DNA from: Desulfatiglandales bacterium
Lineage (GTDB): Bacteria > Desulfobacterota > DSM-4660 > Desulfatiglandales > Desulfatiglandaceae
Direction: 5' to 3'
NCBI GenBank assembly: GCA_963666345.1
Contig: OY762721.1
Coordinates: 2,016,001 to 2,080,000, forward strand
DNA length: 64,000 bases
The translations under genes were made by a program, and so were the position numbers. Position 1 is the stretch's first letter. The number at the start of each line of letters is the position of its first letter. Shown here one piece after another: positions 25,522 to 51,122 of this stretch. The notes under the pieces are model-generated. The model saw only the letters and a program-made list of their open reading frames with translations. It was not told where the DNA came from and searched no databases.

Positions 25522-25690
25522 GGCGGATAAAACCGCTAAAGCATTACAAAGATTTAAAGCTGTTGCAGAGATCCTGCGAATGTTTTTCAGGTATATAGAA
25601 TAAATGAAAAATTCTCAAATAACATGGGGTACACAGAGATCACAAAATTGTTAAAAATGCCGATAAAATCCTTAGAAAACAAACCCTTGA
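25522..25690 (+). pseudogene. Decayed four-helix-bundle gene (internally deleted)
   Basis: Reads LKHYKDLKL... and IKSLENKPL, matching both ends of 50701-51072. Confidence 0.7.
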
Positions 25691-25801
25691 TCGGTTGACT
25701 CATCATCATGAAATCATTGAAACCTGTAGGACGAAACATGCGGCTTCACAGATAAAAAAAGAAGAAATCTTCAACACCTGGTGACATTTTATGAATGGGA
25801 A

Positions 25802-27049
25802 CTAAAAACCACCAAAAATAGGATCAATTAGACACAAGTAATAGTTGAACGAGGCAACTATACCAGTGAGTATTTCCGCAAAAAAAGATAACCCGGAAAA
25901 TAGCAATATAACTGCAGTAAAAGACTTTTTAAAAGTAGATTTAATACCAAGCTCGATTCTTCGAATAGTTTCGGTAGTTAGAATCGAAAACAGCAATATT
26001 GAAGGTGGCGTAATTAGGATTATATAGCGAACAACTTTGGAATAGCCTAAGTAGGCTAATATGACATGAAAAATTATAACCACAAATATCCACATGAAAA
26101 GACACGCACCTTGGCGTCTTAAGCTTTTATTTTTCCATAAAAATATATAAAGAAAAATTGAGGGGATAAAAGTACACATAATTCTTGGCAACAACGATAA
26201 ATATATCCAATGAGATCGAATTACAGTCAGATATTTAACATAATTATTGCTTTCAATAAGGCTATCGCATGGCTTGCCCGCCCAGCCGGGAAAAGGTGTG
26301 CCTACTTTAATCCACTGATAAACCTCCCAGGGGGTTTGCACTAGAATTGCTGGTACAATTAAATATGGAACAAATCGCAGGAATTTCTTCTTATCTGTAC
26401 AAAGAAGCCAGGCCAGAGCGGTAATGCCTGGAAAAATCAGGAACGCTGTTAATTTTATTAGGCTGGCATATCCCAAAAGCAGGCCGGAAATAATAGCCAG
26501 CAAAGCACTTTCACGCTTTACAGCCCAGATAAAAACAGCAGAGGCAAGAGTGGAAAAACCCAATAACGGGCCATCCAACCAGTAATATATTGTGACGTGA
26601 GCCATGATTGGACTAAAGGCAGAGAGCCCGGCAACCAGAAGTAATCCGATGCTTGATGACGCCAAGCCGAACAGACGCGCCAGAAGAATCATACTACAAA
26701 AGAAAAGGACATAGCTAAAGAGTTGTGCAAGAGGAAAACCCCAAATTCCAATAACATTATAAAATAACCAAAATAATGCTATGCCTCCTGGTGGATGAAA
26801 AAAAAGCGGTTTGTCATATCCATTTCTATCGATTATGTCTAGTTCCAGCAGAGGCGTCCCCTGGAGGGTATAACCATTTCCGCTATCCAACTGTTTAACC
26901 AATTCAATATAAATGATTTCATCGATCTCATTGTGTGCCACTACAAAAACTACTAGACGTAAACAAAAGCCCAGAAAAAACAAGACCATCACAATTTTCC
27001 ATCGTGAAATAAATGATCTAAGGCTAGAAAGAAAATTGATTTCAGTCAT
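25802..27049 (-). CDS. GT-C fold (ArnT/PMT-like) membrane glycosyltransferase
   Basis: EIDEIIY acidic loop, FHPPG, many TM segments; AT-rich. Confidence 0.78.
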   Translation of the reverse strand: MTEINFLSSLRSFISRWKIVMVLFFLGFCLRLVVFVVAHNEIDEIIYIELVKQLDSGNGYTLQGTPLLELDIIDRNGYDKPLFFHPPGGIALFWLFYNVIGIWGFPLAQLFSYVLFFCSMILLARLFGLASSSIGLLLVAGLSAFSPIMAHVTIYYWLDGPLLGFSTLASAVFIWAVKRESALLAIISGLLLGYASLIKLTAFLIFPGITALAWLLCTDKKKFLRFVPYLIVPAILVQTPWEVYQWIKVGTPFPGWAGKPCDSLIESNNYVKYLTVIRSHWIYLSLLPRIMCTFIPSIFLYIFLWKNKSLRRQGACLFMWIFVVIIFHVILAYLGYSKVVRYIILITPPSILLFSILTTETIRRIELGIKSTFKKSFTAVILLFSGLSFFAEILTGIVASFNYYLCLIDPIFGGF

Positions 27050-27617
27050 CTGTGTGCATTATCCCAATCATTATGTTGACATCATCATGATCCTGGAAGT
27101 GAATCCCATTTATTTTACAGCCTGATGGACACAAGCTATAATCCCCAAAAATGTATAAACAAGAAAAAGCATCAGACAGCTTCGGCAAATGGGCGAGGTA
27201 AATCGCAGTAAACCTCACCTGATGTTTTACCGTCAAGAGAAGAATGGCATCTGATGACAATATTGTTCTTAATCCACTTGCTAAACCCCAAGCAAACACA
27301 GAGACTTTCCCGTATCAAATGAATGCAGCAGATGTAATGATATTTTAATATCCGCCGTATATTGGTTTATAAATATAAGAAAAAGATCCATTTACAACAA
27401 TTTGGAGTTCTATTAATATAATATTGTTAATAAATTAGTATCAATCCAGGAATGGACTATTTCCGGATGTTGCTTTCAGCCCCGCCACATTCACGGCGGG
27501 CAAGCATCAGCCATCGGCAAGTAACCAATAACCTCTCGCCCCGCTATGTCTGTTTTGTCAAACGAAGCGGGAGGTAAAAGAAAGGGGTCAAGGAGCCGAG
27601 GGGCCTAGGGTTCAAGT

Positions 27618-27860
27618 GATCCGCCACAGAACAGGCGGATAAAAATACTTAAAAATTATAGGAGGTTAAACATCCGGCAGAAATCTCATGCACCTTGGTT
27701 GCATATCTATAAAGAAACGAAACGTTTTTTATGCATGAGCGATACGAGTTTATCTTCAAGATCATAAGATCCGAGGTATCCGTACCATGGAATACCGCAT
27801 GAGCATATGTGGGATTCCTCTATATTGCATATGGTTCAGTCACTGAACTGGAAACCGTGA
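27618..27860 (+). pseudogene. Decayed four-helix-bundle gene
   Basis: Same upstream hairpin GATCCGCCACAGAACAGGCGGATAAAAAT as the 51072 copy; reads ...VSVPWN..FLYIAYGSVTELET with stops and shifts. Confidence 0.78.
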
Positions 27861-27976
27861 GCCATGATATTGGGTCAGTCGGGTTATCCTCGAACCCTTG
27901 AATCCTGGAACCCTTGGACCCTCTTCGACAACTAAGTTGGAGAAAAAGCATAATATTAAAATTCGGAGAAGCGATA

Positions 27977-28741
27977 GTGTTTAAAGACAAAAAGGTCATC
28001 GTGGTCATGCCGGCCTACAATGCTGAAAAGACCCTGCGGAAAACGCACAAAGAGGTCCTGGATCAGCAGATAGTGGATCTGATCATACTGGTGGATGACG
28101 GAAGCTCCGACAGGACGGTAAAGGTTGCTGAAACCCTGCCTGATACGATGGTGTTCGTTCATGAAAAAAACAGGGGGTACGGGGCAAACCAGAAGAGCTG
28201 CTACCGTCTTGCGCTTGAGCAGGGTGCGGATATAGTAGTAATGGTGCATCCCGACTACCAGTACACCCCTAAGCTGATCCCGGCAATGGCCTCTTTAATC
28301 GGAAACGGGCTTTACCATTGCGTGCTCGGCTCAAGGGTCCTTGGCGGTCAGGCCCTGAAAGGAGGCATGCCCTGGTGGAAATACCTTTCAAACAGGGTCC
28401 TTACCATGGCTGAAAACCTCCTGACCGGGGCAAAGCTGTCCGAATATCACACAGGCTACAGGGCCTTTTCAAGAAAGCTCCTCGAGCAGTTGCCGCTTGA
28501 GCAGAATTCAGATGATTTTGTGTTTGACAACCAGATGCTTGCCCAGATCATCCGGCTCGGTCACACCATAGGAGAGATAAGCTGCCCCGCCAAATACTTT
28601 GAAGACGCCTCTTCCATAAACCTTTCACGCAGCATCAGGTACGGCATGGGCTGCCTGGGGGTGGCCTTGAGCTTTTTTGCGGCCCGGGTGGGACTCACAA
28701 AAGAGAGAAGGTTAAAAAAAAGGGTCCCAGGAGCCAAGTGA
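27977..28741 (+). CDS. GT2 polyprenyl-phosphate glycosyltransferase
   Basis: VVMPAYN, VDDGS.D, HPDYQY, TGYRAF; GTG start with RBS. Confidence 0.92.
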   Translation: MFKDKKVIVVMPAYNAEKTLRKTHKEVLDQQIVDLIILVDDGSSDRTVKVAETLPDTMVFVHEKNRGYGANQKSCYRLALEQGADIVVMVHPDYQYTPKLIPAMASLIGNGLYHCVLGSRVLGGQALKGGMPWWKYLSNRVLTMAENLLTGAKLSEYHTGYRAFSRKLLEQLPLEQNSDDFVFDNQMLAQIIRLGHTIGEISCPAKYFEDASSINLSRSIRYGMGCLGVALSFFAARVGLTKERRLKKRVPGAK

Positions 28742-28939
28742 ACCACGAAGAAACAGCATGTTTTTTCTCCGTGTTCTCTGTGGTTTCTGTGAGAAATAAA
28801 AGGCATTTGAACTTCAGGCCCCAACTGGTGAAACTGAAACCGCTGTTCAACTTTTGGGAAGCAAACGAAGCTTTTGATTTGCCAATGTCGGGAGAGTAAA
28901 AATATTTTTGACAACAGGTTTTAAGGGTACGTTACAGGA

Positions 28940-28968
28940 GAAACGCATAAAATCATGGGCGTCCCCCT
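28940..28968 (+). repeat. Solo copy of the 29-bp repeat (1 mismatch)
   Basis: GAAACGCATAAAATCATGGGCGTCCCCCT. Confidence 0.88.
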
Positions 28969-28991
28969 TTTTTGACTGGCAACGCAGTCGG

Positions 28992-30113
28992 CTATTTTTC
29001 CCACGGGCCGCTGGATGGTTCGGGAAAAACCGCGAATCTCCGGCCTATGAAATTACCGACAAGACCTGCCGTGCTTGCAGAAAGCTTTGCGATAAAAGGC
29101 CAAAAGCCAATCGACATTAAAGAGCTTGTGATGACAAGGTCCAATAAAACCATAAAACAGACAACCAGAAAATATATGAACACTTCCATAGCTGAATTCC
29201 ATTTTGCCCGGTGCCTGAACAAAAGCTTAATACATAAAATATAGTTTACAGCCGCAGCAAAAATAAACGCAACCGGGGCAGCCACAAACACCTCAAGATC
29301 AAACCGTAACAACAGAAGGAATACCGCAAGGTTTACAAGCGCCGCAGTACCGCCGATAAAGAGGTAAAAGAGGAATTGAACCGGAACAGGCGCCCTGTAT
29401 GCATTGTACCTGAAGATGCAGTACAACGCCCTGAAACCGTCTTTTACCCCTATTTTTTTACCTTCCCCGTAGGTCCTGCCATAATAGGATATCCCCATTT
29501 CAAAAATTCTTACCCTCATGTGAGCGACTTTTGCCACTATCTCCGGCTCAAAGCCGAAGCGGTTTTCCCTGATATCGATCTGTTCAATTATCTCTCTTTT
29601 AAAGACCTTGTAGCAGGTCTCCATATCGGTCAGGTTCAGGTCGGTAAACATATTGGAAATAAATGTAAGAAACCTGTTTCCCATGTAGTGCCAGAAGTGG
29701 AACACCCTGTGCGCACCCCTGGAAAGGAATCTTGAACCGAAAACTACATCGGCCCTGTCTTCAATTATTGGAATTATCAGTCTCTTAAGGTCTTGCGGAT
29801 CGTATTCCAGATCCGCATCCTGAACAGCCACAAGGTCCCCGGTTGCATGCCGGAATCCGGTACGCAGTGCCGCACCCTTACCGGCATTTTCTTTGTGGGA
29901 TACCACCCTTATGTTCTGAAATACCTTATGAAGTTCCTGCGCTATGGCAGGGCTTTTATCGGATGATCCATCATTTACGATTATTACTTCCAGGATTAAA
30001 GAATCATCTTCAATTTCGAGTAGTTTTCGAATGCATTTCTCAAGAGTCGCTTCTTCATTATAGCAGGGGACCACTACACTCAGCTTCATAGCTTTTTCAG
30101 GTGTTTTCTTCAT
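28992..30113 (-). CDS. GT2 glycosyltransferase fused to GtrA-like flippase domain
   Basis: VVPCYNE, QDADLEY, TDMETCYK; C-terminal 4-TM GtrA-like region. Confidence 0.9.
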   Translation of the reverse strand: MKKTPEKAMKLSVVVPCYNEEATLEKCIRKLLEIEDDSLILEVIIVNDGSSDKSPAIAQELHKVFQNIRVVSHKENAGKGAALRTGFRHATGDLVAVQDADLEYDPQDLKRLIIPIIEDRADVVFGSRFLSRGAHRVFHFWHYMGNRFLTFISNMFTDLNLTDMETCYKVFKREIIEQIDIRENRFGFEPEIVAKVAHMRVRIFEMGISYYGRTYGEGKKIGVKDGFRALYCIFRYNAYRAPVPVQFLFYLFIGGTAALVNLAVFLLLLRFDLEVFVAAPVAFIFAAAVNYILCIKLLFRHRAKWNSAMEVFIYFLVVCFMVLLDLVITSSLMSIGFWPFIAKLSASTAGLVGNFIGRRFAVFPEPSSGPWEK

Positions 30114-30160
30114 TAGATAACACAACCCATATCGATGGACTCGTAACAAGTCATAATTGA

Positions 30161-30285
30161 GACGGCAAAGTAAAAAGTCCCAAATGCAAGGCCTGCGAAT
30201 CTTGAGGAATGAGGCGTACGTACAGTACGTCGCAATGACGAAAGATGAAGCATAACGCAGCAGTTGGACTTTTTACGAAGCCGTC
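30161..30285 (+). mobile_element. MITE-like family G, copy 2
   Basis: Near-identical to 22663-22787. Confidence 0.82.
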
Positions 30286-30296
30286 CATATTGATTA

Positions 30297-31811
30297 TCAT
30301 ACCTCCGGATGTCCTTTTTTTATATACAATACAGATCCCTTATCCTGGTAAACCTTCATCCATCCCGGCTCCTTTTGAAGAAGAAGGTTCAATTTCGATC
30401 TTGTTTTTATCAATATCATTTCATGGGGATACTTTGTCAGAAAATTTCTCCATTTTTTTCTGCCATATATAAATTCAAAATATTCCTCGCTATAGGTTTC
30501 CGTATATACGGTTTCATACCTCCCGTCCATTCCCACCAGGCAGCCTGGGTATAAACTCCAGGCGATATATTCCCCCCATTCAAAAAGGGGCAGCAGATTG
30601 CCTTTAAATCCATTGTGCTTGATATATTCGACCGCCCCTGTGGGGAAATAAAACCCCGATAGCCCAACATCTTCCACAGATGCCGACCTGAGATTTAATG
30701 GATTATCAGAAATGATATTTTTGAAAAAAGAGACTGAAGCATCAGCAAAAATAAGGGATAAAAATATGATAAAAACAATTTTTATTCGCCTTAAACCGTG
30801 ACCGACATTATGACTCTTAATCAGTTTCGTACAAAAATCAGTGAAAATCAAAGGCATGAATATCATAAAGGATATTGCGAAAAACACCATGTGCCGAATA
30901 TGCGACACTCCCAGATAGGCCGTTATCGCCAGCATCAGGAAAGGTGTAACTTCCCTCTTTTTATACCAGACAAAAACAGCCAGGCATATTGCGATGGAGA
31001 CGGAAAATAAAATTGCCTGCTCAAGATAAAGCCCGTTTTTAAGACAATAAAAAAGGGAGCGCCATTCCCCTATATTCGACCGGGGCATTAAGATTGCGTT
31101 TGTGATATAGGTCCAGTAATCCAACCCGTAAGGATTAACAAGAGTAACAGCCAGAGACAGGCCCATTATACCGAGATAAGGCAGGAATTTCCTTTTCGAC
31201 AGGGCCTCGCCAAATGAATAGACTCCAATAATCGCAATGCCTGCGACAAAGCCTCCGTGCAGGTTACACCACAGCAACTGAACAGGCAGAAGCCACAAAA
31301 GGCATTTATATTGATTGCTTTTTCTGGCTCTCTCCAACAGATACACTGTAAGAGCAAAAAAGAGATAGGTAAAAACCTGTGCCCTTACAGGACCATAACC
31401 ATACGAAAAAATTTTCAGACTCAATAGAAGAGTGACGGCGAATGAAACGAAATCAGATCCCCTTTTCCTGGAAGTCAAATAGGCAATGAACAAGGTCAGA
31501 AGTGCTAAAGCATATTTTAAAACCTGCAGCCCGGCAGCGCCGGTTGCCTTATACACAGGGAAAAACAGCACTCCCGTCAACCATTCATGATATACCCACA
31601 GATCTCTTGTAGGGGCATACGAAAAAATATCCTTATAAGGAAACCCTTTTCCTTCCCAGAATAGTCTGCCGAAAGCAAGGTAACCCCAGAGATCAAAATC
31701 AGCAAACGTGCCATGCAGGCAGTTGAAGGCAAATATTAAAGACCCGACTGAAACAAGCAATTTATTCAGATTGAAACTTGACTGACTCTCTTCTAAAGCC
31801 ATGGAAACCAC
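30297..31811 (-). CDS. Polytopic membrane protein, probable GT-C glycosyltransferase
   Basis: DFDLWGYLAFGR, HEWL, RAQVF, LWCNLHGGF, DGRYE. Confidence 0.68.
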   Translation of the reverse strand: MVSMALEESQSSFNLNKLLVSVGSLIFAFNCLHGTFADFDLWGYLAFGRLFWEGKGFPYKDIFSYAPTRDLWVYHEWLTGVLFFPVYKATGAAGLQVLKYALALLTLFIAYLTSRKRGSDFVSFAVTLLLSLKIFSYGYGPVRAQVFTYLFFALTVYLLERARKSNQYKCLLWLLPVQLLWCNLHGGFVAGIAIIGVYSFGEALSKRKFLPYLGIMGLSLAVTLVNPYGLDYWTYITNAILMPRSNIGEWRSLFYCLKNGLYLEQAILFSVSIAICLAVFVWYKKREVTPFLMLAITAYLGVSHIRHMVFFAISFMIFMPLIFTDFCTKLIKSHNVGHGLRRIKIVFIIFLSLIFADASVSFFKNIISDNPLNLRSASVEDVGLSGFYFPTGAVEYIKHNGFKGNLLPLFEWGEYIAWSLYPGCLVGMDGRYETVYTETYSEEYFEFIYGRKKWRNFLTKYPHEMILIKTRSKLNLLLQKEPGWMKVYQDKGSVLYIKKGHPEV

Positions 31812-31935
31812 CTTGATTATTTAACTGGTTATAATATATATATCGCAACATGTTCTTTTTTCCACATTTATCTATAACCGCTGCCGTGAAGATGCAAAAG
31901 GATGGTCTGCCGATTCAGTCAAAAGCGCCCCTTGC

Positions 31936-33390
31936 ATGGAAATTGTGAAAATGGATGCTGAAAGTCCCAAGAAACTTCATTACACTAAAGAGAGGTTAGC
32001 GCACTGGAACGGTGTGGCCCTTAAGATGGATTCATGGAAGGGAGCGGGGGCCTTATATCACAGGCGGCTAAAAAAGATTTTTCAGGCCTGCGTACACCCC
32101 GGACAGAGGATACTTGAGATCGGCTGCGGACAGGGCGACCTCCTGGCCGCGCTTAAGCCCACTTTTGGAGTTGGAATCGATCTCTCCGACGAGATGATAA
32201 GGCACGCCGGGACTAAATTTGCAAACCTTGAATTTATACAGGCCGACATCCACCGGTTACCGCTCGATACCACATTTGATGTAATCATACTCTCCGATCT
32301 TGTGAATGACCTCTGGGATGTTGAGGCCGCCTTTCGTCAATTGCAGAAGGTCTCAAGACCTGACACCCGTCTGATAATAAACACCTACAGCAGACTGTGG
32401 GAAGCGCCTCTTGCCCTTGCGCGCCGGTTCGGGCTTGCCAAACCCTGTCTTGAGCAGAACTGGCTCACGCTCGAGGATATTTGCGGACTTTTGAATCTTG
32501 CAGATTACGAACCGGTTCATTCATCGGAAGAGATAATATGGCCTTTTCCCACGCCCTTGATTGAATCGTTTATAAACAGATACCTGGTAAAATTGTGGCC
32601 GTTTACAGCACTGGCTCTTACTCATCTGATCGTGGCGCGCTCCGTATCCGCTTCAAACAAGCGCGATGAACAAGACACCGTCTCGGTAATAATCCCGGCA
32701 AGGAACGAGGCCGGATCAATACAATCAATTTTCGAGCGTACCCCGGAGATGGGAAAAGAAACCGAGCTTGTCTTTATAGAAGGCGGCTCCTCGGACAATA
32801 CGTGGGATGAAATCATACGTTGCAGAGACCTCTTTCCTGAACGTAAATGCATACTTCTCAAACAGCAAGGGGAGGGTAAGGGAGACGCAGTCCGTCTGGG
32901 ATTCGCCCATGCAACAGGGGACATCTTCATGATCCTTGACTCTGACCTTACAGTGCCACCTGAGATGCTCCCGCGGTTTTATGACGCCCTTCACTCGGGA
33001 AAAGGGGAATTCATAAACGGCGTACGCCTTGTATATCCTGTCGAAAAAAAGGCAATGAGGTTTTTCAACCTTGTTGGCAATAAATTTTTCTCCCTTGCAT
33101 TTACGTGGCTGCTGGGGCAGCCAATAAAAGACACCCTGTGCGGAACAAAGGCCTTGTGGAGAGATGACTACCTCAAGATTTCCAATAACAGGGCAATATG
33201 GGGCATCACTGATCCATTCGGCGACTTTGAACTTCTTTTCGGGGCAGCCAGGCAGAAGCTGAAAATCGTCGAAATTCCCGTCCGGTACAGCGACCGCATG
33301 TACGGGCAGACGAATATTCACAGGTGGCGCCACGGATGGCTTCTAATCAAGATGGCCCTCTGCGCTCTTAGAAAACTTAAATGTGTTTAA
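31936..33390 (+). CDS. SAM methyltransferase-GT2 fusion
   Basis: LEIGCGQG; C-terminal IIPARNE, ILDSDL, DTLCGTK. Confidence 0.9.
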   Translation: MEIVKMDAESPKKLHYTKERLAHWNGVALKMDSWKGAGALYHRRLKKIFQACVHPGQRILEIGCGQGDLLAALKPTFGVGIDLSDEMIRHAGTKFANLEFIQADIHRLPLDTTFDVIILSDLVNDLWDVEAAFRQLQKVSRPDTRLIINTYSRLWEAPLALARRFGLAKPCLEQNWLTLEDICGLLNLADYEPVHSSEEIIWPFPTPLIESFINRYLVKLWPFTALALTHLIVARSVSASNKRDEQDTVSVIIPARNEAGSIQSIFERTPEMGKETELVFIEGGSSDNTWDEIIRCRDLFPERKCILLKQQGEGKGDAVRLGFAHATGDIFMILDSDLTVPPEMLPRFYDALHSGKGEFINGVRLVYPVEKKAMRFFNLVGNKFFSLAFTWLLGQPIKDTLCGTKALWRDDYLKISNNRAIWGITDPFGDFELLFGAARQKLKIVEIPVRYSDRMYGQTNIHRWRHGWLLIKMALCALRKLKCV

Positions 33391-33432
33391 TCAAGTCATT
33401 ATCGATTATTTTCTCTTAGGGGCATAGTCGCG

Positions 33433-35882: not shown

Positions 35883-35904
35883 GGATAGATCTACAAGATT
35901 ATTT

Positions 35905-40167: not shown

Positions 40168-40229
40168 GCAGAATTGTACTGAATATTTAGAAATATTTTT
40201 CTGAAAGACCAAAACTACCAAAGGGATAT

Positions 40230-41405: not shown

Positions 41406-41475
41406 TATTTGCAATATTTACTCCAGCATTGAAACCCTGGTCCTTTGCGCTAGATCAGAGGCGGTTCAGTAATAT

Positions 41476-44524: not shown

Positions 44525-44647
44525 TCAAGCGCCGGGTCTTTCAACAGTTTTGCTTGAAGAAGCTCCGCTGAGTACGGAACCGGTCTTTCCTTCAGCCGTT
44601 ACTGTTATTGAGCTGCCGCTGGCATTGTACGAAAGGGTAAAATCGCC
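44525..44647 (-). pseudogene. Orphan pilin C-terminal cassette (40 codons + stop, no start)
   Basis: GDFTLSYNASGSSITVTAEGKTGSVLSGASSSKTVERPGA*, aligns with both pilins. Confidence 0.9.
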
Positions 44648-44656
44648 CTATTTTTT

Positions 44657-45025
44657 TTATACTGTCCCGGGTTCTGGAACGTCTCTTGATGAAGACGCGC
44701 CAGCCACTGCAGTAGTAGTTTTTCCGACAGCTTTAACAGTTATCGTATCACCATCAGTATACGTAAGCGAGAAATCACCAGCATCTGAGCCAAGAGTAGC
44801 AGTGGTATATACAACTTGGCCTGGAGTACTCCCGGATAGAACGGCCTGACCGAAATGAGCGTTGATCCTGCTTACGCCCTCAGCCAGGGCACCTTCAACC
44901 GCTTTGTTAATAGCTTCATTCCTGAGATCGAAATATTTTGGTATGGCTATAGCCGACAGCATTCCCAGAATAAGCAAGACGGTAATAAGCTCCAGAAGTG
45001 TAAAACCGTCATTTTTCATAATCAT
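44657..45025 (-). CDS. Second type IV pilin (MshA-like)
   Basis: DG|FTLLEL...IPKYFDL; paralog of 45163-45546; ATG at 45025 or 45019. Confidence 0.88.
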   Translation of the reverse strand: MIMKNDGFTLLELITVLLILGMLSAIAIPKYFDLRNEAINKAVEGALAEGVSRINAHFGQAVLSGSTPGQVVYTTATLGSDAGDFSLTYTDGDTITVKAVGKTTTAVAGASSSRDVPEPGTV

Positions 45026-45097
45026 TCCATCGTGTTCAGGCATGCACACCTTTTAATTATCAATCAAGGGCAAAAGAGGGGCAGGATAGCCAGTTTT

Positions 45098-45133
45098 ATG
45101 TCTGAGAAAGATAAACATATCTTTCTCAGACAT
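45098..45133. terminator. 16-bp perfect hairpin between the two pilin genes
   Basis: ATGTCTGAGAAAGATA-AACA-TATCTTTCTCAGACAT. Confidence 0.7.
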
Positions 45134-45162
45134 CTGATAAATAATTAATCTCTCAAATTTTT

Positions 45163-45546
45163 TTATACTGTCCCTGGTGATGATACCTTTCTCGTTGAAG
45201 ACGCACCGGACACTGCAGTACCAGTTTTTCCTATAGCTTTGACAGTTATCGAAGCAGCATCAGTATACGAAAGCGTGAAATCACCGGCATCTGAGCCAAG
45301 AGTATCAGATGTATATACAACCTGGCCCGGTGTACTCCCGGCTAGAACGGCCTGACCGAAATGAGCGTTGATCCTTCCAATACCCTCTGCTAAAGCACCT
45401 TCAACGGCCTTGTTCTTTGCTTCATCCTGAAGATCGAAATATTTGGGGATTGCCACCGCAGCAAGTATGCCAAGAATGATCAGAACCGCGATGATCTCGA
45501 TCAGGGTAAAACCTTTCTGGTTTCGCTTCAAAAGCATTTTCTTCAT
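45163..45546 (-). CDS. pilA: Major type IV pilin (MshA/PilA-like)
   Basis: KG|FTLIEIIAVLIILGILAAVAIPKY; strong RBS AAGGAGG; sigma-54 promoter upstream. Confidence 0.9.
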   Translation of the reverse strand: MKKMLLKRNQKGFTLIEIIAVLIILGILAAVAIPKYFDLQDEAKNKAVEGALAEGIGRINAHFGQAVLAGSTPGQVVYTSDTLGSDAGDFTLSYTDAASITVKAIGKTGTAVSGASSTRKVSSPGTV

Positions 45547-45678
45547 TTTACATCCTCCTTATTATAATTATATAAATTCAAATTTTACTGCTAACAAAAG
45601 TCTTCACTCCTGATTACCCGATATCACCCCCTTTAGCTATTGAATAAAGACAACCAAAGCTACCTGGAATTCATATAA

Positions 45679-45694
45679 TGCAGTATTTGTACCA
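45679..45694 (-). promoter_or_regulatory. Sigma-54 (-24/-12) promoter of pilA
   Basis: TGGTAC-AAATA-CTGCA (GG-N10-GC) on the minus strand. Confidence 0.78.
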
Positions 45695-45802
45695 AAATGC
45701 CGCATGAATCCCGATATAAAACATGCACAATCAATTCAATCGGTTATAAAAGCAGCGATGCTCACGCAATGGGCATTTGCTACAAAAAATGTAGATCAGC
45801 CC

Positions 45803-47122
45803 TCAAATAATGATGCTTTTAAACAACTTGGGATCGATCCCATGCTTTTTCACCCTGTGCCACAGGCTTCTCTGGCTGACACCCAGAATCCCCGCAGCCT
45901 TGTTTTGAACCCCGCCTGTTTTTTTCAAGGCGTCAAGTATAAACCTTTTTTCTATCCTTTTTATTTCTTCATCTAAAATTATATTTCCCGATATCCCCAG
46001 TGAAGGTGCAATTCCTCCCCTTCTTATCTTCTCAGGCAGATGTTCGACCCTCATAACACCATTTTCAGCCACCACAGAAGCCCTTTCAAGCACATTTTTC
46101 AGTTCCCTCACATTTCCGGGCCACTCGTAACTCATCAGATATCGAAGCATATCATCAGAAAGTTTTAACTCAACGTTCAAGGCGCTCAAAAAATGTTCTG
46201 CAAGCAAAGGGATATCTTTTTTTCTCTCCCTCAGGGGCGGCATGTTTATGGCAAACACATTAAGCCTGAAATACAGGTCCTCACGGAAACCGCCCTGTTC
46301 CACCATTTTTTCAATGTCTTTGTTTGTAGCAGCTATAACCCGCAGATCACTTAATATCTCACGCGTGCCCCCAACCCGTTCGAACCGGCCATCCTCAAGC
46401 ACTCTCAGCACCTTCGCCTGTGTACCCGGAGCCATGTCACCTATTTCATCAAGAAAGATGGTTCCGTTATTTGCCAGTTCAAACTTTCCGATCTTTCTTG
46501 AATGGGCACCTGTGAATGCCCCTTTTTCATGACCCAAAAGCTCGCTTTCAAGGAGCCCTTCAGGGATCGCCGCGCAGTTGACCTTTATGAATGGTTTGTT
46601 TTTCCTTTTGCTGTTGCCCTGTATGCTTTCAGCGATAAGCTCCTTGCCTGTCCCACTCTCCCCCAGTATCAGCACTGTCGAATCAGTGGCGGAAACCTGC
46701 TTTACCTGCTTGAGTATCCCCCTTATGGCCCTGCTCTCCCCAACTATTTCAGGGAACAGTTCTCTTGCCTCCACAGCGCTCAGGACCTCTGTTATCTGAT
46801 CAAAAAACCTCTCATACCTTTCAATGGGGTCCTTCTTGTCATCCACATTTTCCTTATTTTTCCCAATCGCCGAAATCGCCCCTGTTTCCGAAATGAATTT
46901 GTCAACCGGCTTCAGTATACCCCTGATAACCAAAAGCCCGCACGCAAAAGAAAACCCAAAGATAAACAATATCCAGAAAAATAAATACCAGTTTTCCGGC
47001 AACCCTCTTCTCAAACAATACTCCGAAAGCCTGAAGGCCCCAAGAGATGAAAGAATTGATATTCCTGATATAATTATCGGGATGATTATTGTAAGGCGTA
47101 TAAAATATTGTTTTTTTTTCAA
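45803..47122 (-). CDS. Sigma-54 enhancer-binding protein with two N-terminal TM helices
   Basis: GESGTGKE, GAFTGA, FLDEIGD, WPGNVREL, Fis HTH; no receiver domain. Confidence 0.93.
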   Translation of the reverse strand: MKKKQYFIRLTIIIPIIISGISILSSLGAFRLSEYCLRRGLPENWYLFFWILFIFGFSFACGLLVIRGILKPVDKFISETGAISAIGKNKENVDDKKDPIERYERFFDQITEVLSAVEARELFPEIVGESRAIRGILKQVKQVSATDSTVLILGESGTGKELIAESIQGNSKRKNKPFIKVNCAAIPEGLLESELLGHEKGAFTGAHSRKIGKFELANNGTIFLDEIGDMAPGTQAKVLRVLEDGRFERVGGTREILSDLRVIAATNKDIEKMVEQGGFREDLYFRLNVFAINMPPLRERKKDIPLLAEHFLSALNVELKLSDDMLRYLMSYEWPGNVRELKNVLERASVVAENGVMRVEHLPEKIRRGGIAPSLGISGNIILDEEIKRIEKRFILDALKKTGGVQNKAAGILGVSQRSLWHRVKKHGIDPKLFKSIII

Positions 47123-47193
47123 ATCACTCGTTTGTTTTAATTGCCATATTCAAAAACAAAATCAGTTTTTCTCCAAAAAAAACAAAAACCCTT

Positions 47194-48420
47194 CTACCCT
47201 GTCATCTTGGTCAGATCCCACATGGGTAAAAATATGGACAAGGCAAAAAAGCCGACCACCGCCGCGAGACCGACAACAAGCGCCGGTCCAATCGCCTCTG
47301 CCAATCCTCTTGTCGCGTACGTGACCTCTTCGTCATAGTGGCCTGCAACCTCTCTCAGCATCTCGTCCAGGTTGCCCGATTCCTCCCCGATCGCCACCAT
47401 GTTTATTACCATGGGCGTGAAGTATTTCGCAGCCCTGAGAGGCGCTGAAATACCCTGCCCTTCTTCGAGCCTTTCACGCAAGGTCCCGAACTGGTTTGAA
47501 ATCGCACTGTTACCTAGTGTTCCCGCAAGAATCCGCATCGATTCAAGCACACCCACCCCGCTTGACTGGAGAATTGCAAAGATACTCGCAAACCTGGACA
47601 TCGCGGCCTTCTGAAAAAGAGGACCGAAAAGGGGTATCCTGAGGATGGCACTATCTTTCATAAGCCGCCCTTTTTCCGTCTTAAAAAAGGAGTAGTAGCA
47701 CCCGCCAACCACAACCAAGACAAAAAGAATCAGTATGTACCAGTAATTTGCCAGCACATTATACATCACCATACATATCTTTGTCGGAAGCGGGAGTTCC
47801 AGGCCCGCCCTGTTGAATATCTTTATAAATTTCGGAATTACGAAGGTAAGAAGCACAAAAAACGCAATTCCAAGGAACGCAAACACTAATGCAGGGTATT
47901 GAAGGGCGGATTTTATGTCCGACTTCACCTTTTCTTCATGCTCCAGGATATATGTCAGACGATCCAGCACCTCGGGAAGCGCACCGCTTGACTCGCCCGC
48001 CCGCACCATGCTGCAGTAAAGAGGTGAAAATATCTTGTGCTTTCTGAAGGTCTCAAAGATTGTAAAACCCTCTTTTACATCCTGGACCATCTGGGTGATT
48101 ATCTTTTTAAACCTCTTGTTTTCGGTCTGGCTTTCCAGGATCTGAAGCAGTGTGACTATAGGAATTCCGGCATTCAGCATGGTCCTGAACTGCTTGGTAA
48201 AAAGGATTATCTCCTTGAGCTTTATAGGGCTCAGTATCTCTTCCAGTTTGTGGACAACTCCCGATTCCTTGGCGTCTCCAAACTGCTGGGAGCTTACCTT
48301 TGTGGGGATATAGCCCTTTTCACTCAGGATGGCGCTTGCCATGTCGATGGATTCCGCCTCGACAACTCCCGTTACGCTGCTGCCTGTCTCGCTTATTGCC
48401 TTGTAGGAAAACTTGGGCAT
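47194..48420 (-). CDS. pilC: Type IV pilus platform protein (PilC/MshG)
   Basis: Two GspF repeats, AGESSG.L, IGEESGNL. Confidence 0.93.
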   Translation of the reverse strand: MPKFSYKAISETGSSVTGVVEAESIDMASAILSEKGYIPTKVSSQQFGDAKESGVVHKLEEILSPIKLKEIILFTKQFRTMLNAGIPIVTLLQILESQTENKRFKKIITQMVQDVKEGFTIFETFRKHKIFSPLYCSMVRAGESSGALPEVLDRLTYILEHEEKVKSDIKSALQYPALVFAFLGIAFFVLLTFVIPKFIKIFNRAGLELPLPTKICMVMYNVLANYWYILILFVLVVVGGCYYSFFKTEKGRLMKDSAILRIPLFGPLFQKAAMSRFASIFAILQSSGVGVLESMRILAGTLGNSAISNQFGTLRERLEEGQGISAPLRAAKYFTPMVINMVAIGEESGNLDEMLREVAGHYDEEVTYATRGLAEAIGPALVVGLAAVVGFFALSIFLPMWDLTKMTG

Positions 48421-48503
48421 AATGGTTGTTCTACCCTCTTAAAGATGTTCATTGTAAATAGATATCTTTATTTCGCCTGCAGTACATTTGAATAAAAGGG
48501 TTC

Positions 48504-48690
48504 TTTGCTCCGCTTACGCTTCGCTCAGTCCCACTGCTTCGCAGCGGGTTCCCGGTTTCAAGGGGTCAAGGGCTTATTTTCCAGAGATTTTATCAGTGCT
48601 TTGAGCATTCTTTCCACTTCTACGATATTACCTTTTATTGTAGCCAATGCCCCTTTTTCAATGAACCCTAAATCACCTGCCAATAATAAA
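48504..48690. pseudogene. Family A element + 3' remnant of four-helix-bundle gene
   Basis: Near-identical to 50623-50830. Confidence 0.88.
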
Positions 48691-48851
48691 TAACAAATAA
48701 CCTTGTACTACTTTCTTTTAACCGCCCGTTTCACTTGAATCCTTGAAACCTCGGATCCTTGAACCCTTTCTCGCCCACTCATAACCAATAACAAATAACC
48801 ATGTCCTTTTTTATTCAGCGGGAACCGCTGAACCCTCGACCCCTCGGACCC

Positions 48852-50579
48852 TTAAGTTAATACTGCCGTGGCCGCCTCTTCAAGCGTGGTCAGTCCCTTC
48901 AGAGCCTTTTCCAGGGCGTCTTCTTTGAGGGTGGTGAGCTTTCCCGCATCTTTGGCGGCCCGCGTGATCTCCTGGGCCGAGCGTCTTTTGAGGATCATGT
49001 CCTGGATCACCTCGTCTATCACAAGGACCTCGAACACCCCGGTCCTTCCCTTGTAACCGGTATCCATGCACTGGAAACATCCGTTGCTTCGGTAAAATTT
49101 CATGCCGTTCGACTCATCCTCTTCAATTCCCCACTGTTTGAGTACCGCGTCGGATGGCCTGTATTCCTCCTTGCAATGAGGGCAGATCTTTCTGACAAGC
49201 CTCTGGGCGAATGAGACAAGCATTACGGATGAAACCAGAAAGGGCTCTATGCCCATATCGATAAAACGTGTTATGGCGCCTGCCGCGTCGTTTGTATGGA
49301 CCGTGCTCAGGACCCTGTGTCCTGTCATGGCGGCCTGGACCGCGATGGTGGCGGTTTCCGCATCCCTTATCTCACCTACCATGATCACGTCCGGGTCCTG
49401 GCGAAGTATGGACCGAAGGCCGCTCGCGAAAGTCATGCCCGCCCTGCGGTTAAGCTGCACCTGCCTGATCTTTCCCATGCGGTACTCCACCGGATCCTCA
49501 AGCGTTATGATATTTATGTCCGGCTGATTTATTTCACTTAAGATCGAATAGAGGCTCGTGCTCTTTCCGCTCCCGGTGGGCCCGGTGCTCAGGATCATGC
49601 CGTAAGGCATCTTTATGATCGACTCGATTTTTTCCTGGTCCTTTTTGCTCATGCCCAGAAGACCCAGTTCATACACGCCGCTGCTCATATCGAGCAGTCT
49701 CAGCACGATATTTTCACCATAGATCGTGGGAAGGGCGGAGGCCCTGATGTTTATCTCCCTGTTTTCCATCTTTATGGTGAATCTTCCGTCCTGGGGTATC
49801 CTTGAAACCGCGATATCCATGTTCGAGAGGATCTTTATCCTTGACGCGATGGGAAGAAACATCGACTTGGGCGGGGCCGGCACCTCGTGGAGCTTCCCGT
49901 CCACCCTGAATCTGACCTGGACATAGTCCTTTTCAGGGCTGATATGAATATCGCTTGCCTTTTCACGAATCGCCTGTGACAAAATCGAGTTTACAAGACG
50001 TATGACAGGGGCCTCTTCAGCCATACCCTGAAGGGAACTCACCTGCAGGTCCTCTGTTACGGTTATCTGCTCCTGCTCGGCCTCGACCTCCTCTTCTTCC
50101 TCGATCTGCGATTCATCCACGCTGTTTAAGACGGATCCCATATCCGAATACATACCGTAGATCTTGCCGGTCAACTGGTTGAGTTCCTGCTCTGTGCAGA
50201 TGACCGCTTCCACCTCCATGTTGGTCAGGCTCTCTACGGCATCGACGGCCTGGATATCCATCGGGTCGGGCATGGCTATCTTAAATAGAGTAGCGCCCTG
50301 CCTCAGAGGGACGACCTGGTATTTTCTCGCAATCTCAAGAGGAATAACCGAGGCAAGGGTGGAATCAAGCGTGAATTTTTCACTTCTGTATTTCTCGATT
50401 CTTAGCTGCCTGGAGATCAAATCCATTATCTGGGATTCGCTCACTATTCCCTGGCGCGTAAGATACTGCCCCAGCTTAAGCCCCGCCGCCTTCTGGCCCG
50501 CAAGAGCCTTATTGAGCTGGGCCTCGCTTACCAGCCCCTCTTCAATGAGCATCTCTCCTAGTCTCTTTTTTATTCTCAA
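48852..50579 (-). CDS. pilB: Pilus assembly ATPase (PilB/MshE) with MshEN domain
   Basis: RLGEML..EGLV....L..AL..Q, GPTGSGKS, LRQDPD, CxxC pairs. Confidence 0.95.
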   Translation of the reverse strand: MRIKKRLGEMLIEEGLVSEAQLNKALAGQKAAGLKLGQYLTRQGIVSESQIMDLISRQLRIEKYRSEKFTLDSTLASVIPLEIARKYQVVPLRQGATLFKIAMPDPMDIQAVDAVESLTNMEVEAVICTEQELNQLTGKIYGMYSDMGSVLNSVDESQIEEEEEVEAEQEQITVTEDLQVSSLQGMAEEAPVIRLVNSILSQAIREKASDIHISPEKDYVQVRFRVDGKLHEVPAPPKSMFLPIASRIKILSNMDIAVSRIPQDGRFTIKMENREINIRASALPTIYGENIVLRLLDMSSGVYELGLLGMSKKDQEKIESIIKMPYGMILSTGPTGSGKSTSLYSILSEINQPDINIITLEDPVEYRMGKIRQVQLNRRAGMTFASGLRSILRQDPDVIMVGEIRDAETATIAVQAAMTGHRVLSTVHTNDAAGAITRFIDMGIEPFLVSSVMLVSFAQRLVRKICPHCKEEYRPSDAVLKQWGIEEDESNGMKFYRSNGCFQCMDTGYKGRTGVFEVLVIDEVIQDMILKRRSAQEITRAAKDAGKLTTLKEDALEKALKGLTTLEEAATAVLT

Positions 50580-50622
50580 GGCTCATCCTTTCAAAAAATT
50601 ATAAAAAGGGGTTCAAGGATTC

Positions 50623-50678
50623 TTTGCTCCGCTTACGCTTCGCTCAGTCCCACTGCTTCGCAGCGGGTTCCCGGTTTC
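50623..50678 (+). repeat. Family A 56-bp mini-element within 9-mer repeats
   Basis: GGTTCAAGGATTC[element]AAGGATTCAAGGGGTCAAGGATTCAAGGGG. Confidence 0.9.
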
Positions 50679-50700
50679 AAGGATTCAAGGGGTCAAGGAT

Positions 50701-51072
50701 TCAAGGGGCCGAGTGTTTATTTTCTAATGATTTTATCAGTGCTTTGAGCATTCTTTCCACTTCTACGATATTACCTTTTATTGTAGCCAATGCCCCTTTT
50801 TCAATGAACCCTAAATCACCTGCCAATAATATCTGGGTTTCCACTTCACAGATTGAACCATAAGCAATATAAAGCATCCGGATGTAATCAGCCGTGGTCT
50901 TTCTTCCATATCCTTCTGCAATATTGGAAGGCACAGACACAGGCGATCTTCTTAGTTGTGAAGTAAGACCGTATTTTTCTTCCTTTGGAAATTTGCCTGT
51001 TATTCTACATATCTTTAAACAGAGTTCGTATGACTTTTGCCAGACCTTCAGATCCCTGTAAGTCTTAAGCAT
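50701..51072 (-). CDS. Four-helix bundle protein (23S rRNA-IVP/bAvd-like family)
   Basis: YRDLKVWQKS, FPKEEKYGLTSQLRR, SNIAEG, GS..E.ETQ. Confidence 0.93.
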   Translation of the reverse strand: MLKTYRDLKVWQKSYELCLKICRITGKFPKEEKYGLTSQLRRSPVSVPSNIAEGYGRKTTADYIRMLYIAYGSICEVETQILLAGDLGFIEKGALATIKGNIVEVERMLKALIKSLENKHSAP

Positions 51073-51122
51073 TTTTATCCGCCTGTTCTGTGGCGGATCA
51101 CTCGGCCCCTTGAACCCTTCTT

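Follow-up and report, generated by a model that had tools for sequence, protein, structure and literature searches.

The four-helix-bundle (4HB) genes of the window, by which we mean the whole 64,000-nt stretch of Desulfatiglandales DNA analyzed here, probably belong to a widespread cassette of the intervening-sequence (IVS) type that dwells in operons and whose arms pair in RNA. The anatomy of this cassette is clear: in about 0.4 to 0.5 kb, a purine- or G-rich array of about three to five tandem 7- to 8-nt units is followed by an open reading frame (ORF) of the PF05635 family and then by the reverse-complement array at the stop codon. We also consider it very likely that the cassette has been mobile over evolutionary time. 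PF05635 (TIGR02436) is known from 23S rRNA IVSs and as a relative of the DGR cofactor Avd; it is a large family with solved structures, and we know of no function for it.

The intact cassette and its relics in the window

The intact gene lies between a gene for an AAA_22/PEP-CTERM-type ATPase (51123-52748) and a T2SSE pilB-like gene (48852-50579). Its product matches PF05635 23S_rRNA_IVP with an E value of 4.5e-38 (130.2 bits, cut-off 33.8) and is also above the cut-offs of TIGR02436 (127.9 bits, cut-off 24) and NF008911 (143.5 bits, cut-off 137). The motif R-x3-S-x3-N-x2-E is present in the translation as RSPVSVPSNIAE; the family consensus in PMC3936711 is GxxRxxxSxxxNxxE, and its leading G is not found at that spacing in the window's protein. 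The PDB relatives 2GSC (E 3.8e-24) and 2RLD have five chains per entry, and the window protein is predicted, only by homology to these two, to be a homopentamer of four-helix bundles. PADLOC gave no match for it. The cassette consists of the following parts.

50701-51072, minus strand: intact 4HB gene, 123 aa (PF05635, TIGR02436, NF008911)
51099-51119, minus strand: 5' arm, G-rich tandem 8-mers in the gene's direction, adjoining the stop codon of the upstream ATPase gene
51077-51098, minus strand: small ATCCGCC/GGCGGAT hairpin with a loop of 8 nt, separating the 5' arm from the start codon
50676-50715, minus strand: 3' arm, C-rich 8-mer array in the gene's direction (Tandem Repeats Finder period 8 and 16)
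50615-50675, plus strand: one copy, out of the window's six, of a repeat element of about 60 nt that has a GCGAAGC-type hairpin and is here joined to the 3' arm

Within the 3' arm lie the gene's last four codons and its stop codon. The 21-bp arms at 51099-51119 and 50695-50715 are reverse complements at 20 of 21 positions, and they form the 21-bp closing stem in both the MFE and the centroid folds of the 471-nt cassette RNA, which has a z of -4.5 and folds better than all of 100 shuffles. Three decayed copies and an extra array were also located.

48496-48768, minus strand: truncated cassette between pilB and the T2SSF (pilC-like) gene, with the 60-nt element (48496-48557), the 3' arm (48558-48575), the last 50 or so codons (48561-48707) and a 5'-side arm (48734-48768)
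48830-48852, plus strand: extra C-rich array with no ORF, abutting the pilB stop codon
27582-27955, plus strand: decayed cassette (tblastn E 5e-12 and alignment), with a G-rich arm (27582-27616), a hairpin (27619-27640), an ORF relic (27645-27885), a C-rich arm (27886-27928) and an outer TTCGACAACTAAGTTGGAGAA-like hairpin
25434-25700, plus strand: strongly decayed cassette, with the 60-nt element (25434-25507), an N-terminal piece (25522-25619) and a C-terminal piece (about 25662-25700)

In the truncated cassette, AATAACA-type repeats stand in place of the 5' two-thirds of the gene. Its 48496-48688 region is 86.6% identical to the intact copy over 217 columns (blastn), and 48561-48707 is 79% identical to residues 71-123 of the intact protein (tblastn); with all family proteins as queries, the remnant extends over 48561-48761 (best E 5e-19, tblastn at E of at most 0.01). 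The plus-strand stretch 27645-27955 matches residues 1-108, and alignment with the intact copy shows that the start codon of this relic is now ATA, that internal deletions have occurred in 27645-27885, and that the ATCCGCC...GGCGGAT hairpin is common to both copies. Its outer hairpin resembles one about 23 nt past the stop codon in related Desulfobacterota loci. In the most decayed copy about 230 bp are deleted; the piece starting at 25522 aligns by blastn at 70% over 100 nt (E 6e-5), and the 3' end piece aligns at about 25662-25700 and holds the start of a C-rich unit. This relic was not recovered by tblastn at E of at most 0.01, a threshold at which the whole window yielded three stretches only, and searches at E up to 10 were too noisy for further relics. 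These results confirm the first-pass annotation in describing one intact gene, a near-identical 3' remnant and two decayed copies (that at 25522 being the weaker), all four beside short repeats, with a hairpin common to the 27618 relic and the intact copy. Its "9-mer repeats" have to be revised, since most window arrays have period 8 in Tandem Repeats Finder, a few having period 9, and since each copy is flanked by arrays in inverted orientation, with a G-rich array 5' of the gene and its reverse complement overlapping the stop codon.

Arrays also occur apart from the genes. Compared with 50 mononucleotide shuffles, the window holds 15 repeat clusters of at least two units against 0.52 expected, and 4 of at least three units against 0 expected.

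2442-2482, 2698-2730 and 2795-2831, plus strand: orphan C-rich arrays, with a reversed 60-nt element at 2800-2887 (blastn)
4855-4942, plus strand: copy of the 60-nt element, then a 2-unit array
9404-9435, plus strand: orphan C-rich array of 4 units between ABC-transporter and MFS genes
12904-12948, plus strand: copy of the 60-nt element, shortened internally, that ends in GGTTTCAAG and borders the IS110 element on its left
14387-14410, plus strand: G-rich array right of the IS110 element, possibly the other half of an interrupted array
24576-24609, plus strand: orphan C-rich array, then the initial bases of a 60-nt element in reverse orientation

Around the arrays at 2442-2887 we detected no 4HB remnant, and it is plausible that such orphan runs are scars of lost cassettes. 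A CRISPR-like reading of the arrays was dropped because the units are contiguous and without spacers, and a terminator reading because no T-run follows them. The IS110 gene (13044-14096) sits between the truncated 60-nt element and the array at 14387; the earlier proposal that IS110 exploits the cassette is no more than consistent with these junctions, and no second copy or empty site was seen. The window contains no rRNA by Rfam, as first annotated, and no tRNA by tRNA scan; likewise, none of its 51 non-overlapping ORFs of at least 90 aa has a reverse-transcriptase Pfam match.

Arms, repeat units and inheritance in related loci

Among related loci, the 150-nt flanks upstream and downstream of the gene showed inverted similarity that was reached by at most 1 of 200 shuffles in 57 of 74 cases, while the direct-orientation control gave 7 of 74; at 10 of the 74 loci no significant inverted flank was found. 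The shuffles were made per locus. A strict single-motif count and a cross-locus control under-reported the pattern, because the units differ by lineage and loci of the same type match each other. The median arm length is 33 nt (interquartile range 21 to 39; 66 loci whose arm score is 24 or higher), and clearly periodic upstream arms have period 8 at 13 and period 7 at 6 of the 74 loci, against a background of 6 and 10 of 800 windows, respectively. The 5' arm has more G than C in 62 of the 66 loci, with four ties and none reversed. The cassette is also co-oriented with its upstream neighbor at 54 of 62 loci, with its downstream neighbor at 59 of 67 and with both at 42 of 53, against background values in these loci of 0.67 (pairs) and 0.52 (triplets).

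These arrays could alternatively belong to an independent, genome-wide REP- or MITE-like family that is moved in trans, for example by the Y1 (RAYT-like) gene at 10896-11915, the 4HB genes being merely where the repeats accumulate. The orphan arrays fit such a reading, as do the six copies of the 60-nt element, three of which are away from any 4HB remnant, and the window resembles REP/BIME-RAYT systems in having short structured intergenic repeats in many copies together with a RAYT-like gene. That gene encodes a Y1_Tnp protein with a match below the cut-off to the REP-associated tyrosine transposase model REP_Tyr_transpos (58.5 bits, cut-off 80). However, this gene has perfect 29-bp inverted repeats of its own on either side and no arrays, and on account of these separate repeats it was rejected as the mobilizer. 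The arrays differ from REP/BIME units in being tandem 7- to 8-mers rather than single palindromic units and in being tied to the 4HB gene rather than to the Y1 gene: among the close, TYCRAGG-type loci (41 sources, 498 kb), a 4HB stretch is no more than 200 bp away from 61 of the 71 arrays with three or more units, which bears out the earlier view of gene and flanking repeats as one unit. This unit carries no transposase. The fixed polarity of the arms around the gene and a repeat unit that follows the protein clade and not the host argue in the same direction, and none of the 80 related loci has the 60-nt element, although arrays are present there. Folded together with its array, this element formed only a short GC hairpin, with z values from -1.4 to +0.2. 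We therefore regard an independent repeat family as highly improbable.

The repeat unit varies by lineage, including TYCRAGG, GGCACAAA, GGGTWTAG, GGCAAGAG and others, and loci with the same type of unit group together on the protein tree, also across phyla: the tree needs 19 changes of type, where 200 shuffles need 39 on average and none as few. At the groES|groEL site (L063 and L076 versus L065), the units differ between species, yet both arms of each copy still match; at a second orthologous site (L043, L049, L059) the units are likewise species specific, with the arms matched within each copy. Proteins at the same site form one clade, or one clade is not rejected, and vertical inheritance at fixed sites is seen in Phycisphaerae (groES|groEL), Flavobacteriaceae and WOR-3. 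All 15 evaluable pairs have dN/dS values of 0.05 to 0.25, a 16th pair being saturated; judged from these comparisons of sequences, the 4HB protein is functional and under purifying selection. In-frame stops or frameshifts occur in 9 of the 80 related loci.

No RNA-level signature was found in the arms, where G-U-compatible mismatches (74) do not outnumber those of the A-C kind (97; p 0.09). The match between arms could therefore be maintained in the DNA, or by one arm converting the other. The stem alone does not explain the strict G-rich-first polarity. Two kinds of locus depart from the common layout. In Pseudanabaena (L083, between cas6 and cas4), the flanking heptamer arrays are direct and not inverted, and in Flavobacterium loci about 60 to 70 AT-rich bases separate the 5' arm from the ORF, which may have its own promoter and then give an mRNA without the 5' arm. 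No consistent neighbor gene was found in the relatives' loci inspected, where the only ORF of full-length copies is the 4HB protein, and the host contexts are unrelated: chaperonin, conjugation, cas and pilus genes, and a putative ribonucleotide reductase gene (a guess from its first codons).

Filled and empty sites in Nostocales plasmids

Filled and empty states were found at three sites in Nostocales plasmids, with flanks 84 to 98% identical, and in all three the inserted cassette sits at the 3' end of the upstream gene; for example, Nostoc sp. PCC 7120 pCC7120beta has an empty site and Trichormus variabilis ATCC 29413 plasmid C a filled one. Site 1 is filled in three plasmids, empty in seven (97.3 to 97.6% identity) and occupied by a truncated relic in one. 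The site 1 insert measures 428 bp and is bounded by GTAATAAA and GTAATTAA, where the empty site has a single GTAATTAA, giving an 8-bp duplication that is identical at 7 of 8 positions. Sites 2 and 3 have filled and empty states without a clean target duplication, which was thus seen at one of three sites overall; the site 3 target sequence resembles an array unit. In the Scytonema copy, the 5' arm is without two heptamers. The same cassette subfamily was located at 50 places across 30 plasmid records, and seven records carry ORF-less versions, 170 to 202 bp long, in which both arms are present.

These observations bear on the reading that the cassette is a domesticated, essentially immobile operon module, whose arms and protein regulate the processing, stability or translation of neighboring genes and whose extra copies in the window are old decaying duplicates. 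Vertical inheritance at the same sites in three groups, purifying selection on the ORF and co-orientation with the operon speak for it, and so does the recurrence of 23S_rRNA_IVP genes within cas operons described in PMC3936711, to which the locus between cas6 and cas4 can be added. However, an immobile module is hard to reconcile with filled and empty plasmid sites at 97% flank identity, with one subfamily at 50 places, or with ORF-less versions, pseudogenes at 9 of 80 loci and unrelated host contexts, and repeat-unit types cross phylum boundaries along the protein tree. We consider this module reading unlikely.

Taken together, the earlier interpretation as a mobile cassette is partly supported. 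Of the repeated gain and decay that it proposed, decay is seen in three window copies as well as in the nine related loci, and gain is seen in relatives at the Nostocales sites; no event was caught in the window's genome. The presence/absence comparison at orthologous loci succeeded for the plasmids, and none of the 80 related loci is syntenic with the window, hence no orthologous empty site is available for its copies. As for paralogs in conserved positions and lacking repeats, which the first-pass annotation would have taken as contrary evidence, many relatives are indeed inherited vertically at conserved positions, but they keep their repeats. A history of insertion and decay is thus documented for relatives, and we infer the same for the window's genome.

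Relation to known elements and proposed explanation

ORF-bearing 23S rRNA IVSs are known from Leptospira, Coxiella and the Xanthomonas-type S23p. We found that plasmid AZO_p2 of Azospirillum lipoferum carries a PF05635 ORF inside a 23S rRNA gene (Rfam LSU 1786-4984), flanked by a purine-rich tandem array and its complement, the same kind of arms thus enclosing the ORF in this comparator IVS (L081). In Coxiella, according to PMC4990558, tandem heptamers lie upstream of the IVS ORF and the IVS is excised by RNase III. The likeness to the cassette covers the PF05635 protein, the purine-rich tandem repeat before the ORF, its complement after the ORF and the long closing stem, and both the rRNA inserts and the cassettes can be viewed as selfish and tolerated because RNA can be cut. 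In contrast, the window copies lie among protein genes (a pilus/secretion operon and a glycosyltransferase region) and not in helix 25 or 45 of 23S rRNA, and it is only for the rRNA forms that excision by RNase III has been documented. The earlier term "undescribed" is therefore too broad, as the architecture is that of ORF-bearing IVSs. A search of the literature other than subscription journals and bioRxiv supplements gave no account of repeat-armed 4HB cassettes away from rRNA; the papers that it retrieved do not report their spread beyond rRNA, repeat units specific to lineages, filled and empty sites, or versions without the ORF.

The second related system is the DGR, whose Avd is a homologous four-helix bundle that likewise forms pentamers. 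According to bioRxiv 10.1101/2023.10.23.563531, all five Avd protomers contact one RNA stem-loop, and the template RNA is bracketed by complementary upstream and downstream segments. The window protein scores below cut-off with the Avd models (NF033474, 25.3 bits against 80; PF22296, 25.8 against 40), and the window differs from a DGR in having no adjacent reverse transcriptase, and no template/variable repeat pair was seen. One could nevertheless envisage a retro-mobile cassette: a reverse transcriptase encoded at another place in the genome, for which the Avd-like pentamer serves as cofactor, would copy the stem-loop RNA, perhaps after RNase III has excised it, and the copy would be reinserted, the G-rich units arising by reiterative copying. 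The homology to Avd, the obligatory partner of the DGR reverse transcriptase according to the same preprint, and the weak model matches are in its favor, as are the short, G-rich, polar arrays of variable unit number (exemplified by the Scytonema copy) and the array-like target of site 3. However, the window has no reverse transcriptase and the loci inspected have no conserved neighbor, the 8-bp duplication at the sole clean junction fits DNA transposition equally, and neither poly-A nor adenine-specific variation was seen. We judge this retro-mobile route very unlikely.

MITEs and foldback transposons are non-autonomous elements with terminal inverted repeats, some of them built from tandem subrepeats. 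The cassette is similar to them in its inverted ends, the lack of an internal transposase, its many copies, its short ORF-less derivatives and the one 8-bp duplication. It differs in carrying a conserved, selected gene that is not a known transposase, in the polarity of its ends (G-rich first) relative to the gene and the host operon, and in showing a duplication at only one of three sites; in the loci inspected, no cognate transposase of an autonomous partner could be recognized.

The explanation that we prefer, that of an IVS-type, operon-dwelling cassette, would work as follows. As in its relatives, the cassette would have been inserted into the DNA at the borders of genes. It lies within host operons in the sense direction, and its arrays would pair in the operon transcript to form a duplex of about 20 to 35 bp that closes the ORF into a loop. 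Such a stem would be of the kind cut by RNase III in rRNA IVSs, and with RNase III-type cleavage the insert would therefore be tolerated wherever an RNA break is tolerated; whether the cassette RNA is actually processed by RNase III seems to us evenly balanced. After insertion, the cassette in relatives either persists for long periods, with its protein under purifying selection and both arms changing together, or decays through stops, internal deletions and ORF loss into relics, ORF-less hairpin versions and solo arrays, and decay of this kind is seen in the window. As for the mover, we would guess first at a partnership between a host enzyme and the Avd-like pentamer, with the latter bound to the repeat units in the cassette's arms, although binding of the protein to its own arrays is doubtful enough to be put forward only tentatively. 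A bolder version, which we think quite unlikely, is that PF05635 cassettes are a distinct and very widespread class of minimal mobile element, in which the pentamer reads the arm units, one per protomer, and a polymerase, reverse transcriptase or nuclease that it recruits from the host then copies or transfers the stem-loop to the borders of genes and to rRNA helices. If that were true, the IVS ORF, a 30-year-old puzzle, would be the element's own mobility and maintenance factor.

For the family as a whole, the scattered labels "four helix bundle protein" and "S23 ribosomal protein" are brought together into one definable genetic element, whose non-ribosomal members across many phyla have a repeat-armed build, a unit that covaries with the protein, entry into and exit from operons, and ORF-less forms. 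The 4HB-family genes reported as CRISPR-cas "associated" (PMC3936711; figure legend of PMC10910872) may simply be insertions, or their arrays may be caught by repeat finders. Culturable strains with an empty site (Nostoc sp. PCC 7120) and a filled one (Trichormus variabilis ATCC 29413) make the question testable.

Cassette copies and repeat arms in the window

The intact four-helix-bundle (4HB) gene encodes a 123-aa protein matching PF05635 ('23S rRNA-intervening sequence protein', E 4.5e-38). In profile searches the protein scores above the cut-offs of TIGR02436 and NF008911, while models of Avd, the cofactor of DGR reverse transcriptases, match only below theirs; structures exist for two relatives, 2GSC and 2RLD, both structural-genomics entries with five chains. 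The gene lies in sense orientation within a minus-strand gene run, and the other window copies were checked by self-comparison, family-wide tblastn and a four-way alignment (A1).

4HB copies, their arms and neighboring genes
51123-52748, minus strand: AAA_22 / PEP-CTERM-type ATPase gene, first in the run
51099-51119: 5' arm of the intact cassette
50701-51072, minus strand: intact 4HB gene
50676-50715: 3' arm of the intact cassette
48852-50579, minus strand: T2SSE pilB-like gene, following the 4HB gene
48561-48707: 3' remnant of a 4HB gene, near-identical to the intact copy, on the opposite side of pilB
47194-48420, minus strand: T2SSF gene, last in the run
27645-27885: dead 4HB relic, almost full length (E 5e-12), start codon changed to ATA
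25522-25700: much weaker 4HB relic, both gene ends only

The first-pass annotation had proposed a mobile cassette without a transposase, and its intact gene was confirmed, as was, by all three comparisons, its near-identical 3' remnant across pilB. Of its two decayed copies, that at 27645-27885 is clear, but that at 25522-25700 is detected by blastn and alignment only. The ATCCGCC...GGCGGAT hairpin that it placed before both the relic from 27618 and the intact copy is indeed retained in front of each (27619-27640 and 51077-51098). Small GC-rich hairpins of this kind also lie within or beside the arms of the related loci L001 and L044, with a form like GCGCCCGC...GCGGGCG; those of the window and of the two loci resemble either secondary insertions or an added module. 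As it had also stated, neither rRNA nor reverse transcriptase was found within the 64-kb window, nor was any tRNA.

The 9-mer repeats described beside the copies are real, with 15 unit clusters against 0.52 expected from shuffles, but Tandem Repeats Finder gives a period of mostly 8, and 9 in a few arrays. The unit approximates GGnTYCRAG (CTYGRAnCC on the other strand). What had been missed is the orientation: the arrays are inverted around each copy, with a G-rich array ahead of it in the gene direction and the reverse complement of that array behind. In the intact gene, the 3' arm includes the final four codons and the stop. When the 471-nt RNA was folded, both the MFE and the centroid structure paired the arms as a perfect 21-bp stem enclosing the whole ORF (z-score -4.5; 0/100 shuffles as stable).

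A 60-nt element containing a GCGAAGC-type mini-hairpin of high stability is present in six window copies (50615-50675, 48496-48557, 25434-25507, 4855-4923, 2800-2887 reversed, and 12904-12948), each ending in an array-like unit. It was found in none of the 80 related loci (the best 80 of at least 577), and therefore is probably an outer module specific to the source genome. Two short modules also stand beside arrays, one TTAACCGCCCGCTTCGCTTGA-like (2484-2510, 48706-48734, 14556-14585 reversed, 27557-27585) and one AATAACAAATAACC-like (2760-2783, 24538-24553, 48682-48701, 48771-48801, 14595-14625 reversed), giving the intergenic regions a mosaic build.

Some window genes are irregular. Beyond the ATPase gene, the C-terminal end of a secretin-like ORF (53351-54625) aligns with only positions 1-40 of 169 of the Secretin profile; this ORF is followed by 602 bp without an ORF of at least 90 aa, and the region 52749-54625 may be a disrupted pilQ-type gene. 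An ABC transporter (5311-7457) is split over two ORFs overlapping by 4 nt, with ABC_membrane positions 36-189 in the first and 190-273 plus the ATPase domain in the second, likely through a frameshift or assembly error.

Conserved anatomy and polarity in related loci

From a genome scan we took the best 80 of at least 577 relatives, the source genome not being among the 80. The closest of these are 79-80% identical, come from Desulfatiglandales and Desulfobacterales MAGs and are flanked, as in the window, by TYCRAGG-type arrays. The units of more distant groups differ (for example GGCACAAA, GGGTWTAG, GGCAAGAG, GGCATTCG and GGGACTWG), and in each group the complement of the upstream unit is found behind the 4HB gene. 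Within these 80, inverted similarity between the upstream and downstream flanks was found in 57/74 loci (matched by at most 1/200 shuffles) and was absent in 10/74, while the direct-orientation control gave 7/74. The arms have a median length of 33 nt (IQR 21-39), and the 5' arm is the G-rich one in 62/66 loci, with 4 ties and none reversed. Across phyla, unit type clusters on the protein tree, with 19 changes where shuffles average 39 (0/200 shuffles as low), although some of this clustering arises from relatedness alone.

The cassette is also co-oriented with its surroundings. Among the same 80, the upstream neighbor runs in its direction in 54/62 loci, the downstream neighbor in 59/67 and both in 42/53, against a background in these loci of 0.67 (pairs) and 0.52 (triplets), with p about 1e-4. 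This is in keeping with a cassette that depends on the host operon transcript or is tolerated by it.

Many Desulfobacterota copies (L004, L005, L009, L011, L018, L019, L024, L027, L028, L036, L044) have a palindromic, TCTCCAACTAAATTGGAGAA-like outer hairpin about 15-55 nt past the stop codon, mostly 23-25 nt. Additional hairpins of this type flag further relics in L027 and L044, and a degenerate one stands at 27929-27955, at a window relic.

Of 71 arrays with at least three units (TYCRAGG group plus window; 41 sources, 498 kb), 61 have a 4HB stretch no more than 200 bp away; ten are orphans, five of them in the window. This tight association argues against independent REP-like repeats moved by the window's Y1 gene, as does the fact that this gene has its own, separate 29-bp inverted repeats, and we regard such an origin as very improbable.

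Y1 and IS110 elements of the window
10869-11957: Y1 element; 339-aa protein with a Y1_Tnp (IS200-like) domain and a DnaA C-terminal HTH
13044-14096: IS110-family (RNA-guided) transposase gene, within the region 12949-14386

The Y1 protein scores below the cut-off of the REP-associated tyrosine transposase model, and with its perfect repeats (10869-10897, 11929-11957) the gene forms an odd self-contained element. The IS110 gene has on one side a shortened 60-nt element with GGTTTCAAG at its end and on the other, at 14387, a G-rich array, an arrangement that would agree with insertion into an array. Adjoining it is an AAA_14 + DUF4143 ATPase (14773-16041) that matches the PADLOC candidate defence family PDC-S01 (E 3e-153).

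Fixed copies, insertion polymorphism and decay

Same-site copies occur at groES|groEL in three Phycisphaerae, at two further Planctomycetota sites, and at one site each in Flavobacteriaceae and WOR-3; in the protein tree the proteins of a site group as a single clade, or such a clade is not rejected. At these fixed sites the unit varies between species, yet both arms of each copy match, so that the arms change together; at groES|groEL, for example, L063 and L076 have GGCATTAG-type arms and L065 has GGCACTWG-type arms. The dN/dS of the 4HB ORF is 0.05-0.25 in 15/15 evaluable pairs, and the ORF is under purifying selection. That the cassette is a domesticated regulatory module seems unlikely to us. 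Overall, 4HB cassettes are both fixed and mobile.

Three filled/empty sites are polymorphic in Nostocales plasmids; plasmid C of Trichormus variabilis ATCC 29413, for example, is filled at a site that is empty in pCC7120beta of Nostoc sp. PCC 7120. At the first, the cassette is present in three plasmids and absent from seven (97.3-97.6% identity), and a truncated relic remains in a more divergent one. The 428-bp insert separates two conjugation-region genes, coming after the stop codon of one and before the start of the other; GTAATAAA and GTAATTAA border it, and the empty site has a single GTAATTAA. At the second site, the upstream gene has lost its 3' end to the insert, which replaces about 17 nt of target. 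At the third, six records have the gene annotated and no fewer than three of those aligned are empty; here the insert directly follows the upstream stop codon in a target similar to an array unit. Alignment of filled and empty plasmids revealed no clean duplication at the second and third sites.

This Nostocales subfamily, with heptamer TCAGRAK arms, was met at 50 places across 30 plasmid records. In seven of these records there are ORF-less versions of 170-202 bp, whose two arms surround a core that is conserved, non-coding and roughly 100 nt long. In-frame stops or frameshifts affect 9/80 related loci (the best 80 of at least 577), and several Desulfobacterota loci, like the window, have copies or relics in groups of two or three spanning a few kilobases. 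The proposal of a mobile, decaying cassette is partly supported by insertion polymorphism and decay in relatives, the observed mobility events all being in organisms other than that of the window. In L016 (about 7150-7760), both sides of the cassette carry the 31 nt with which the downstream gene begins (start MLSKILSA, presumably comM-like), an unusually long duplication, and an ORF-less G-array/loop/C-array hairpin comes after the 4HB gene.

Relation to ribosomal intervening sequences and CRISPR-cas loci

A plasmid search revealed an unannotated PF05635 match in plasmid AZO_p2 of Azospirillum lipoferum. It falls within a 23S rRNA gene (Rfam LSU 1786-4984), some 1,150 nt into the rRNA, a position that would agree with the helix-45 site named for Coxiella in PMC4990558. 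As in the window cassettes, the ORF of this intervening sequence (IVS) is preceded by a purine-rich tandem array and followed by the complement of that array. According to the same paper, three tandem heptamers precede the S23p start codon in the Coxiella IVS, RNase III excises it, and IVS mobility is an old idea. In view of the Azospirillum and Coxiella layouts, the window cassettes have the build of a known object, while lying outside rRNA. The suggested system is not wholly undescribed: although the literature searched gave no description of repeat-armed 4HB cassettes outside rRNA, the architecture itself is of the known IVS type.

By analogy with the IVS, the arms would pair in the operon RNA and be cut by RNase III. 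G-U-compatible arm mismatches are not enriched (74 vs 97 A-C mismatches, related loci among the best 80 of at least 577), which counts against a purely RNA-level reading of the arms, and the fixed G-rich-first polarity also needs an explanation beyond it. A DNA-inserting enzyme would be encoded elsewhere. A retro-mobile element served by a reverse transcriptase in trans seems quite improbable. All five Avd protomers touch one RNA stem-loop, as stated in bioRxiv 10.1101/2023.10.23.563531, and a 4HB pentamer may likewise read the repeated units. We may conclude that the window feature is an IVS-type cassette outside rRNA, in partial support of the first-pass interpretation.

PMC3936711 reports 18 4HB genes inside or near CRISPR-cas loci, and a figure legend of PMC10910872 also places some there. 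In L083, the Pseudanabaena galeata plasmid pPg_01, we found a 4HB gene between cas6 and cas4 (1280-1960) with long heptamer arrays in direct orientation, (AAAAGCT)n before and (AAAAGCC)n after, the inverted partner array lying further upstream. The CRISPR-cas-associated 4HB genes are probably insertions of the same element, and heptamer arrays of this type could mislead CRISPR or repeat finders.
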